Part shown: one piece after another, positions 1 to 13,444 of the stretch
Position numbering within the stretch: position 1 is the stretch's first letter
Layout of the letters: every line of letters begins with the position of its first letter
DNA from: Escherichia coli
GTDB lineage: Bacteria > Pseudomonadota > Gammaproteobacteria > Enterobacterales > Enterobacteriaceae
DNA length: 13,444 bases
Direction: 5' to 3' (one strand)
Assembly (NCBI RefSeq): GCF_003334815.1
Contig: NZ_QOWO01000057.1
Notes under the pieces: generated by a model
Databases searched by the model: none
Seen by the model: only the letters and a program-made list of their open reading frames with translations
Told to the model about the DNA's origin: nothing
Made by a program: the position numbers and the translations under genes

Positions 1-77
1 AGCTGATAGAAACAGAAGCCACTGGAGCACCTCAAAAACACCATCATACGCTAAATCAGTAAGTTGGCAGCATCACC
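1..77 (-). mobile_element. IS1 terminal segment: left inverted repeat plus the first ~7 codons of insA (GTG at 20-22 on the minus strand); the element body lies beyond the left window edge
   Basis: The reverse complement of 1-77 reads GGTGATGCTGCCAACTTACTGATTTAGCGTATGATGGTGTTTTTGAGGTGCTCCAGTGGCTTCTGTTTCTATCAGCT, which matches the IS1 left end as I recall it with one mismatch, including the insA start (GTG GCT TCT GTT TCT ATC AGC = MASVSIS). Recognised from memory, not from a search. Confidence 0.8.
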
Positions 78-898
78 ATATAATTCCATTCACCATTTTT
101 TAATTCAAACAGCTCTGGAAGAGATGACGGTTGCAGAGTCATACGTTTGAGTGGTGCATTTTCATCACCCGGGATAACTTTATATCCCATTTTTGCATGG
201 ATCTCCGCGGTACCGGGATAGGCTTCTATACCAATTATTGGGTCATTACCCAACTCAATATTAGCATTAAGTAATGCGGCAAGGGCGAATCCGGAAGAGT
301 TTGCCACCCCTGAGACAGTCATTATCTGATCAATATAGATATCAATCCTTGGCTGCTCATTGGTCCATCTTTTTGCCTGAGAAGTTGGAAGAGTTGAAAT
401 ATATCCTATCGTGGTTCCGGCGTAACCTGGAACATTGCAACCAGGGCCTAATGTTATTTCATGAACTGTATAGTCCTCAACAGGATCGAAAGGGCTCTTC
501 ATAAATAAATTTAGCCGTAAACCTTCTGCTAATTCTGTAGCAGCATGCGCCTTTTTACATATGCCACCATATATTTCGTCTAAAGCTGAGGTGATTTTCA
601 AGTTTCGATAGAGCATACGTCCTGTTGTTGTAATACCATCGGATTCTCTGCATGCTTCTGTCACATAATTAAATGGCCAAGACTCTTTACTAATATCAAG
701 TTTTCTAATTTCGACAACGCTTTTTCCATCGTAATTATGGTTATTGCCACGAGCAAGAGGCAGAAGATAGATATTTTCCGTATCCAGGCGTGCACGTTCA
801 TATTTACGTGTTAACTCACTGTCGACTTTTGGATGATGAAGGAAGTGATTATCTGTAATAATTTGGCTCTGAAGGGTATTGCTTAATGGCATAGACAT
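56..898 (-). CDS. yjiC: Uncharacterized protein, positionally equivalent to K-12 YjiC; the 3' end runs across the IS1 junction
   Basis: 280-aa ORF from the six-frame track, divergent from iraD as in K-12 gene order. The last ~7 codons and the stop (56-77) lie inside the IS1 terminal sequence. Family not recognised from sequence; symbol assigned by synteny only. Confidence 0.55.
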   Translation of the reverse strand: MSMPLSNTLQSQIITDNHFLHHPKVDSELTRKYERARLDTENIYLLPLARGNNHNYDGKSVVEIRKLDISKESWPFNYVTEACRESDGITTTGRMLYRNLKITSALDEIYGGICKKAHAATELAEGLRLNLFMKSPFDPVEDYTVHEITLGPGCNVPGYAGTTIGYISTLPTSQAKRWTNEQPRIDIYIDQIMTVSGVANSSGFALAALLNANIELGNDPIIGIEAYPGTAEIHAKMGYKVIPGDENAPLKRMTLQPSSLPELFELKNGEWNYMVMLPTY

Positions 899-1490
899 AA
901 TAGTTACCTTTTATGAGTATTTCACTGATGTTTAGAAAAATAGATAAATTTTTCTGTAGTAAAATGAGAAGTAAACAAATGACATGCATGTTTCTGTTGT
1001 AGTGATATCAACTCTACACGGTGATATTAAAGGGTAGGAAACACTCTAAAGTATCAAAAAACGCTCATTTGAAATTATTTTCATGCAATTTAAAAGCATA
1101 TCTTATTACTAATTGGAATTTGATGTTGCTATATTGATGTCTATATTAATAATGCCTGTGAATGGTATTTTTGATGTATTTGATATGTTATCAATTTATA
1201 TTATTTACAAACTAATTGTTTCAAATAATACATGGCTGATTATGCGGAAATAAATAATTTCACACCGGAATTAAGTAGCGGTGGTGACAAGTATTTTCAT
1301 CTACGTAACTATTCGGAATATTCAGAATATACTAGCGGTTTTTTTTTGAGTTTGATGATTTTTATCAAATCATGACTTTTTTCCTGAAAAGTCAGTAGAT
1401 ATTCATAGGCAAGTAAGGTTTTATACTTTGCTGACAGGATTCAGGCCTGTCTCAGACTGACATGGATGTAATGAACAAAAGGGAATGGCT
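899..1490. promoter_or_regulatory. Long AT-rich divergent intergenic region between yjiC and idlP-iraD; presumed promoter/regulatory region
   Basis: 592 bp with no ORF of note, visibly AT-rich with A/T runs; contains TTGAT(G/A)T direct repeats at 1120-1186 and two adjacent 7-bp inverted repeats at 1355-1393. No promoter elements were mapped. Confidence 0.4.
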
Positions 1491-1574
1491 ATGGAAAATG
1501 AGCATCAATACAGTGGTGCCCGGTGTTCAGGGCAAGCCGCATATGTTGCTAAACGTCAGGAGTGCGCAAAATGA
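1491..1574 (+). CDS. idlP: 27-codon upstream ORF (iraD leader peptide) whose TGA stop overlaps the iraD ATG
   Basis: ATG at 1491 preceded by AAAGGGAATGGCT (GGGA/GGA motifs). Translation [27 protein letters not shown], stop TGA at 1572-1574 overlapping the iraD ATG at 1571-1573 (AAAATGATG). Too short to appear in the supplied ORF track. Matches the idlP leader peptide as I recall it from the literature. Confidence 0.7.
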
Positions 1575-1963
1575 TGCGCCAATCACGTCAGGCTGTTTTA
1601 CCTGAAATTTCAGGCAATAAAACGTCATCGCTGCGTAAATCAATATGTAGCGATCTCCTCACTCTTTTTAATTCTCCTCATTCGGCATTACCGTCATTAC
1701 TTGTTTCAGGCATGCCCGAGTGGCAAGTGCATAACCAGAGCGACAAACATCTCCAGAGCTGGTATTGCCGTCAGCTGCGTTCTGCACTGTTATTTCATGA
1801 GCCACGGATTGCGGCGTTGCAGGTCAATCTGAAAGAAGCGTACAGCCACACGCTGGCGATCAGCCTTGAGATAATGCTGTACCACGACGATGAACCGCTA
1901 ACGTTTGATCTGGTCTGGGATAATGGCGGTTGGCGTAGTGCGACCCTCGAGAATGTCAGCTAA
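1571..1963 (+). CDS. iraD: Anti-adaptor protein IraD (inhibits RssB-mediated RpoS degradation); phage gp25/GPW baseplate-like fold family
   Basis: Translation [23 protein letters not shown]...[10 protein letters not shown], 130 aa from the ATG at 1571; the track ORF begins 3 codons earlier at a GTG. Stop TAA at 1961-1963. Confidence 0.9.
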
Positions 1964-11824: not shown

Positions 11825-11864
11825 AATGTTAAGAATAGAGCCTGACGGCAGGATCGCGCAAAAA

Positions 11865-13097
11865 TCACCGCTCCTCCGCCAGCTCGGCAGCCTGATGTTG
11901 GCGCACGCGATTAAGCAATCCCGCCAGGGTGAAAACGACGATAAGGCCCGCCACGACGGCTAACAGATGAAACGGCAAGCGACCGCCGTTAAACCACAGC
12001 CAGCGGCCGATTTCGACCGAGACAGACATCACCATCAGGATCACCATATTCAGCGATGCGGAGACGGTCCCTTTCGGTAAGTTATTGGAAAACAGCGTAA
12101 AGCGGAATAAGGTCGGGATAATCAAACCAATCCCGAAAGCATACAGACTGGTGCCCAGCACCGACCACAGCCAGACGTGCGGTGACAGCAGATTGCCGAT
12201 AATCAACAGCGCGAGGCCAACCAGTTGAATGGGTACGGCACGCCAGATAAAGCGCGGTTCGGTCGGATCTTTAACGAAACGCGCCACGATGGCATTCGCG
12301 ACAATCACCGCGCCGAATACCGGAACCTGTGTCCAGGCGAACTGCGAGGTCGTTAAGCCGCCTGCGTCAATCAGGATCACCGGCGAGACAGCCACCCAGC
12401 TCATCATTGGGATATAGCTTAAAGAGATGGTTGCTGCACCAAAGAGGAACAGCCGATTGCAAAAGACATTACGAAAATCGCGCAAGACGCTTTTGGCGCT
12501 AAATGAAACCGCGCCGCGCTTCACCGTCTCTGGCATCGCCAGCAGTAAGCCAACAAATGAGATAAAACCCATAATCGCAATGATGGCAAAAAGGACTTTC
12601 CAGTGTACAAAGTGCATCAGAGCTGCGCCGGAAAGCGGGCCGATAATCGGCGCAATCAGTACGATGGAGGTGATAATCGCCATCAACCTGATCCCTTTTG
12701 TCTGGCCGAACGCCTCCTGCACCGTGACATAACCAACGGTGGCAATAAAACAGATACTGGTGCCCTGAATTGCACGCGCGATAAGAAACTGTGTCATAGA
12801 CGTTGTGAACATTGTCGCAGCGCAGGCAAGGGTAAATATTAGCGCCCCGGTAATCAGCACCGGCCTGCGGCCAATCCTGTCGGAAAGCGGCCCCAGCAGC
12901 CACTGTAACGCCATACCGCCCGCGAGATAGAGACTGACGGCTGCCGGGGCCAGACTGACATCGGCATTAAAATCACGGACCACATTAATGATCCCCGGCT
13001 GAATCAGGTCCGTCGACAGGTACGCGGCAAAATCATACAAAATCAACGCCATCGGGAAAAACAGCGTGGCGGCATGGCGGGCAAAAAAACGTGGCAT
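11865..13097 (-). CDS. mdtM: MFS multidrug efflux transporter MdtM (DHA1 family; formerly YjiO)
   Basis: 410 aa from the ATG at 13097 ([26 protein letters not shown]...), with AGGAG 9 nt upstream. The 443-aa track ORF is an in-frame upstream extension. Confidence 0.85.
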
Positions 13098-13367
13098 AAC
13101 AAACAACTCCTTGTCCGGAGAACCCCAACGGGCAAAACGAAATTCAATACCGTCGGTAATGACGAAAGGCAGGCGAGAAGGGCAACGAGACTGCAAATGT
13201 ACTGAATTTCATGTAATCAACCACACTGCCTGTGAACACACCGACAGAGAAATACCTTCTGACTCCAGGTCAGAATGTATAACGATTACAAATAGTCATC
13301 AGCACATTACACCTCTTTAATTGATGGCTTGCATAGAAAATATACACCTTAAGTGTAATTAAAATTT

Positions 13368-13444
13368 GGTAATGCTGCCAACTTACTGATTTAGTGTATG
13401 ATGGTGATTTTAAGGTGCTTGCGTGGCTTCCATTTCCATCAGAT
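13368..13444 (+). mobile_element. IS1 terminal segment of a divergent isoform: left inverted repeat plus the first codons of insA (GTG at 13423, MASISIR...); the element body lies beyond the right window edge
   Basis: GGTAATGCTGCCAACTTACTGATTTAGTGTATGATGGTGATTTTAAGGTGCTTGCGTGGCTTCCATTTCCATCAGAT aligns to the IS1 left end with about 10 of 77 mismatches and is the inverted counterpart of window 1-77. Confidence 0.8.

Follow-up and report, generated by a model that had tools for sequence, protein, structure and literature searches.

The stretch of Escherichia coli DNA considered here, contig NZ_QOWO01000057.1 of the assembly GCF_003334815.1, is 13,444 nt long and is referred to as the window. 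At either end it breaks off within an insertion sequence (IS) of the IS1 type, and in between lie yjiC, ytiD, idlP, iraD, hypT, iadA, yjiG, yjiH, kptA, yjiJ, yjiK, ytiA, yjiL, yjiM, yjiN, and mdtM, named according to the RefSeq annotation of E. coli CE0021a. This strain provides the nearest closed genome, which matches the window over its full length with five single-nucleotide polymorphisms (SNPs). The window itself contains only 77 nt of each IS1 copy, and the full 768-bp structure of both elements was read in CE0021a. Population counts refer to a collection of 5426 complete E. coli genomes, assembled without Shigella, and coordinates outside the window refer to the loci of CE0021a (L001), D2 (L002), K-12 (L003), two genomes with a sister arrangement (L004 and L005), strain S3 (L009), and the IS1F copy of K-12 (L012). 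Taken together, the window is very probably a native yjiC-to-mdtM segment with an unrelated, complete IS1 element on either side, the two having arrived at different times. Its features are as follows, IRL denoting the left and IRR the right terminal repeat of an IS1.

1–77, minus strand: IRL end of an IS1A-type IS1, with the tip at 77 and the body continuing leftwards; 76 of 77 positions as in K-12 IS1A
78–86, no strand: inner copy of the 9-bp target-site duplication of the left IS1A, ATATAATTC; the same 9 bp stand at the far end of the element
56–898, minus strand: yjiC (DUF2686 protein), with a C-terminus rewritten by the IS1A insertion; the frame now stops inside the IS
87–13358, no strand: native chromosomal block from yjiC to mdtM, colinear with K-12
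13359–13367, no strand: inner flank of the right IS1F, TTAAAATTT; the last 9 bp that are K-12-like, 270 bp upstream of mdtM
13368–13444, plus strand: IRL end of an IS1F-type IS1, with the tip at 13368 and the body continuing rightwards; 77 of 77 positions as in K-12 IS1F

A preliminary description of the window had recognized IS1 left ends at 1–77 and 13368–13444, in opposite orientation and with their termini facing inwards, and the comparison with the K-12 reference copies bears this out. The reverse complement of 1–77 has one mismatch to the first 77 nt of IS1A and 11 to those of IS1F, and 13368–13444 has no mismatch to the first 77 nt of IS1F and 10 to those of IS1A. Both are the insA-proximal left end of the element, the tips of which touch the enclosed DNA while the bodies exit the window. 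When the two ends of the window were compared with each other, an inverted repeat with arms at 3–81 and 13364–13442 was found, which is 86% complementary. Within the 77 nt of IS1 sequence, mismatches occur at 11 positions (4, 28, 40, 45, 53–55, 64, 65, 70, and 76); the divergence described before is real, and only the count of about 10 needed correction. The inner flanks had been read correctly as ATATAATTC (78–86) and TTAAAATTT (13359–13367), and these sequences also agree with the earlier statement that no target duplication is common to both ends.

In the closed relative CE0021a, neither element is a truncated remnant, and both copies have their full length and open frames. The left copy (768 bp, L001 5310–6077) has an intact insA and an open InsAB' frame of 232 amino acids (aa), and it differs from K-12 IS1A at 4 of 768 positions (99.48% identity). 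In the right copy (768 bp, L001 19368–20135), the InsA and InsAB' frames are likewise intact, and 4 positions deviate from K-12 IS1F (99.48% identity) and 69 from IS1A. Both copies carry the A6C frameshift site at position 307 with the 232-aa fusion frame open, for which a programmed frameshift is annotated in RefSeq, and both end in imperfect terminal repeats (GGTGATGCTGCC or GGTAATGCTGCC at one end, GGTAATGACTCC at the other). With an identity of 90.9% over 768 bp between them, and with junctions found in 244 and 450 genomes, respectively, they are independent insertions of distinct IS1 variants, as had been proposed. The two K-12 reference elements, IS1A and IS1F, differ from each other at 73 positions, a number that is likewise given in the literature (PMC12428005), and the transposition of IS1F in K-12 was described as very poor (PMC12428005). 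In K-12 IS1F (L012 3473–4240), the InsAB' frame stops at residue 162, and the CE0021a copy keeps all 232 aa; judged from the reading frame, IS1F copies in nature may have a higher activity than would be expected from the K-12 reference. Close copies of this element carry the name 'IS1F family' in some annotations of the Prokaryotic Genome Annotation Pipeline (PGAP).

The enclosed 13.3-kb block was compared with K-12 MG1655 and is colinear with it at 97.3% identity, the boundaries in K-12 both being without IS1. The earlier statement that K-12 carries no IS1 at this locus is therefore confirmed for either site. Furthermore, at least 80% of the window was found in 4936 of the 5426 complete genomes. 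The block is native, core-like chromosome and not cargo. A scan of the window against Rfam gave 0 matches. With regards to base composition, the yjiC-ytiD-iraD end (window 1–2000) is AT-rich, with 39–40% G+C compared to 49–57% for most of the rest, which fits the tendency of IS1 to insert into AT-rich targets. Two further observations concern variation within the block. The SNPs between CE0021a and D2 are clustered in patches (window about 500–2500 and 6000–10500), with near-identity elsewhere, indicating a recombination mosaic across the block. In addition, some near-identical genomes span about 775 bp beyond the length of the window, as two pieces, which suggests a further IS-sized insertion inside the block.

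At the left end, ATATAATTC is present on both sides of the IS1A in CE0021a (L001 5301–5309 and 6078–6086, the latter corresponding to window 78–86). At the empty site of K-12, the same 9 bp occur once (L003 3501–3509), inside the last codons of yjiC. Since the 9 bp match on both sides and the empty site is single-copy in K-12, the left element is a simple case of plain IS1 transposition with a perfect 9-bp duplication, the duplications made by IS1 being 8 or 9 bp long. The insertion changes the C-terminus of YjiC from ...EWNYIGK* in K-12 to ...EWNYMVMLPTY* in the window (56–86), where the stop codon is located inside the IS. When both flanks and the IS were used together as a query, the left junction was covered in 244 of the genomes. 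In the sequence of events that we propose, an IS1A of the consensus type jumped into the last codons of yjiC and duplicated 9 bp there, probably as the younger of the two events.

The right end is of a different kind. The IS1F is flanked by TTAAAATTT on its inner side and by CGACAGCGA on its far side, which are unlike each other, and a target duplication is thus missing; the junction was covered in 450 genomes. The homology of both K-12 and S3 to the window ends exactly at the tip of the right IRL, with 13367 as the last homologous position. To the right of the window, only the brnT/brnA toxin-antitoxin pair (L001 20136–20917) lies between IS1F and yjiA in CE0021a, with a frameshift in brnT. 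In comparison with K-12, homology resumes only at yjiA, so that the IS1F and 782 bp with brnT and brnA stand in for 19.1 kb, in which K-12 carries rpnD, yjiR, yjiS, yjiT, yjiV, mcrCB, symE, hsdSMR, and mrr. Strain S3 has brnTA beside yjiA as well, without an IS1, and here both flanks of the right junction are single-copy and 11,270 bp apart (L009 27382–38651). Relative to S3, the window's lineage lacks rpnD, yjiR, yjiS, symE, a type I restriction-modification (R-M) system, and a restriction endonuclease. The brnTA-yjiA segment as such is not rare, with 2002 of the 5426 genomes carrying it, in some of them beside an intact type I R-M island (e.g., S3). The interval from yjiN/mdtM to yjiA is known as the hypervariable immigration control region, a defence island (PMC12707154; PMC4498929), and the loss of a target duplication is usually the result of recombination between two IS copies or of an adjacent deletion (PMC11708052). 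As the right IS1F has no duplication and its flanks are separated by extra DNA in relatives, it marks a rearrangement junction bordering the immigration control region, which we read as a deletion scar.

Concerning the course of this deletion, a sister arrangement, present in 661 of the genomes, is informative. It has the identical IRR-brnT junction, but a different flank on the IRL side, which consists of a 270-bp copy of the distant yghW-yghX region with 98% identity (L004 11729–12000, and L005). The copy is fused to mdtM about 21 bp inside the gene, with an overlap of roughly 7–10 bp, and corresponds in position to window 13097–13367; the native start of mdtM and its promoter region are replaced by it in these genomes. 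A native yghX::IS1F insertion was also considered as the donor of the sister junction and rejected, the counts of 662 versus 661 genomes leaving essentially none. The sister arrangement shows that remodelling occurs on the IRL side of this IS1F, and a deletion starting from the IRL end is favoured because the same IRR-brnT junction is combined with another IRL-side flank. Mechanistically, an older, divergent IS1F would have removed the immigration control region either through an adjacent deletion promoted by IS1 or through recombination with a second IS1F copy.

The search for stages preceding the deletion returned other IS1 insertions in this area. One query for an intermediate (Q2) led only to strain Ec-91, in which brnT carries an unrelated IS1 in its 5' part (L010 15652–16400). 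The other (Q1) led to 50 genomes, the E. coli B/BL21 lineage included, that have IS1A elsewhere in the interval from mdtM to rpnD. Around the edges of the immigration control region, IS1 has inserted repeatedly and independently.

Two points weigh against this reading. First, among the 5426 genomes, none represents a pre-deletion intermediate, in which an IS1F would be accompanied by a duplication at one of the end points and by an intact island; how exactly the right junction arose, and in which order, is therefore what we infer. Second, the poor transposition of IS1F in K-12 somewhat weakens the case for a transposase-driven deletion; the copy at this locus, however, has an intact InsAB' frame, unlike that of K-12. 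By another account of the right junction, and of this junction only, the IS1F would have been left behind by homologous recombination of directly repeated IS1F copies flanking the island, or would have come in with a horizontally imported segment. Either route leaves a single IS with unlike flanks (PMC11708052), the immigration control region is prone to recombinational replacement (PMC4498929; PMC12707154), and the recurrent IS1 insertions around its edges as well as the very low transposition activity of IS1F in K-12 (PMC12428005) would suit such an origin. We nevertheless regard it as rather unlikely, as none of the 5426 genomes has an IS1F at just one of the two sites, and two IRL-side flanks combined with one IRR-side junction are more simply described as events that started from the IRL end of one resident copy. 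Returning to the deletion from a resident element, one old IS1F beside brnTA may repeatedly have remodelled its IRL side, and this could explain the loss of the immigration control region in about one-fifth of the complete genomes, a proposal that we put forward tentatively and with less than even confidence. If it is true, the IS1 bracket of the window is a by-product of the IS-driven erosion of a defence island.

The two junctions also appear to differ in age. The left IS1A is identical in CE0021a and D2, and the right IS1F differs between the same two genomes at 7 positions and is annotated as a pseudogene in D2, L4_E1441_ETEC, PSJ-14, and Ecol_545. This divergence between the copies, together with the pseudogene annotations and the occurrence in 450 versus 244 genomes, indicates that the IS1F junction came first and the IS1A insertion later.

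The inverted pair of IS1 copies had led to the suggestion that the segment is a composite-transposon-like unit. Taken literally, the 13.3 kb with an IS1 on each side would be a composite transposon similar to Tn9 or Tn1681, which has already moved as one unit or is able to do so. In favour of this, both copies are complete, their outer (IRR) ends are intact, and their transposase frames are open in CE0021a; IS1 composite transposons with inverted copies do exist, as in the case of Tn1681. However, the block sits where it natively belongs, colinear with K-12. A separate 9-bp duplication accompanies the left IS1, the sequences outside the pair (ATATAATTC and CGACAGCGA) are unlike, and the junctions differ in frequency (244 versus 450 genomes). 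Moreover, a genuine ectopic copy of the block was not found. The matches in the plasmid collection were mostly chromosome-sized or very large records, with one exception of 22 kb. This record, NZ_LT985269.1 (L008, labelled plasmid RCS63_p, 22.3 kb), contains ISEcp1-blaCTX-M-14 in hypT, followed by the genes from iadA to mdtM, an IS1F (17534–18300), brnTA, and then sul2-strAB. Its structure is owed to ISEcp1-blaCTX-M-14 and not to the IS1 pair, and it represents either a piece of chromosome in a small circular entry or a contig with a wrong label or a faulty assembly. Considering all this, mobility of the block as a composite transposon is a practically negligible prospect.

A second suggestion was that the inverted copies make the segment a substrate for inversion, and the block might accordingly flip by homologous recombination in natural populations. 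The repeats are inverted and 768 bp long and share 90.9% identity; their longest identical run, of 51 bp, exceeds the minimal length for RecA-dependent exchange. A divergence of about 9%, on the other hand, strongly lowers recombination as long as mismatch repair is active. An inverted junction was searched for with a synthetic query, in which the uxuR flank was joined to the reverse complement of the region upstream of mdtM, and it was found in one place in 0 of the 5426 genomes, by a design without a positive control; the joining of separate pieces by the search was seen to work in the left-junction query. In addition, the duplication around the left IS1 is intact, which shows that no exchange between the copies has taken place in this lineage since the insertion. 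Inversion of the block in natural populations is consequently very improbable. Overall, nothing indicates that the 13.3-kb block moves or inverts, or that the two elements act together.

The preliminary description had further taken the IS1 bracket as a sign of an IS-rich host, such as Shigella or an IS1-rich E. coli lineage. Within the Shigella-free collection used here, the closest matches turned out to be ordinary E. coli with few IS1-matching places: the window query matched 11 places in CE0021a and 5 in LSN03-016011/A, mostly IS1 ends, and a single place in D2, which means that the two copies at this locus are the only IS1 of D2. A simpler origin of the bracket is offered by the length of the IS1 sequence, which is exactly 77 nt at each end of the window. 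De Bruijn assemblers run at k=77, a common value, stop in this way where a unique segment meets multi-copy repeats. Most probably, the window is therefore a short-read de Bruijn contig (k=77) that was broken at multi-copy repeats 77 nt into either IS, and with these equal ends the bracket would largely reflect where the contig was cut. The underlying two full IS1 copies are real but ordinary.

As a whole, the arrangement is an already known, ordinary IS polymorphism of little importance; its isoforms are known, and hundreds of RefSeq genomes have annotations of both insertions. The pair of 77-nt IS ends should be taken as a warning that a contig ends there, not as biology. Of practical use, both junctions can serve as lineage markers. 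Only mildly interesting is the fact that the right IS1F marks the loss of an island, along with the sister junction and its captured yghWX fragment. The right junction records that the classical restriction (immigration control) island was lost in this lineage, which bears on the ease with which such strains take up foreign DNA.

For better comparison, both elements and the unit they enclose were set against known systems. The left element resembles IS1A, the 768-bp consensus IS1 of K-12, in its terminal repeats, insA, the A6C frameshift site, the 232-aa InsAB', and the 9-bp duplication; it differs in its position, the 3' end of yjiC, where K-12 has no insertion, and only 77 nt of it are in the window. 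The right element resembles IS1F, the type IV IS1 of K-12 located next to fecIR, with 4 mismatches over 768 bp and 77 of 77 positions in the window, but it is located at mdtM/brnT, has an InsAB' that is intact in CE0021a (K-12 stops at 162), and lacks a duplication. With Tn9 and Tn1681, the window shares that two IS1 copies bracket a DNA segment, and in Tn1681 these are likewise inverted. In contrast to these transposons, there is no duplication round the unit, the passenger is native, the isoforms differ in type and age, and ectopic copies are lacking. The scars of IS adjacent deletions and of IS-IS recombination provide a closer parallel, given a right IS1F without a duplication whose second flank lies 11.3 to 19.1 kb away in relatives. 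Here, the event differs in being ancient and fixed in about 8% of the complete genomes (about 20% if the sister junction is included), with no intermediate among them. Finally, the right end of the window coincides with the left boundary of the immigration control region, an island that in this lineage is reduced to IS1F and brnTA, with even the framework genes rpnD (yjiP), yjiR, and yjiS gone.

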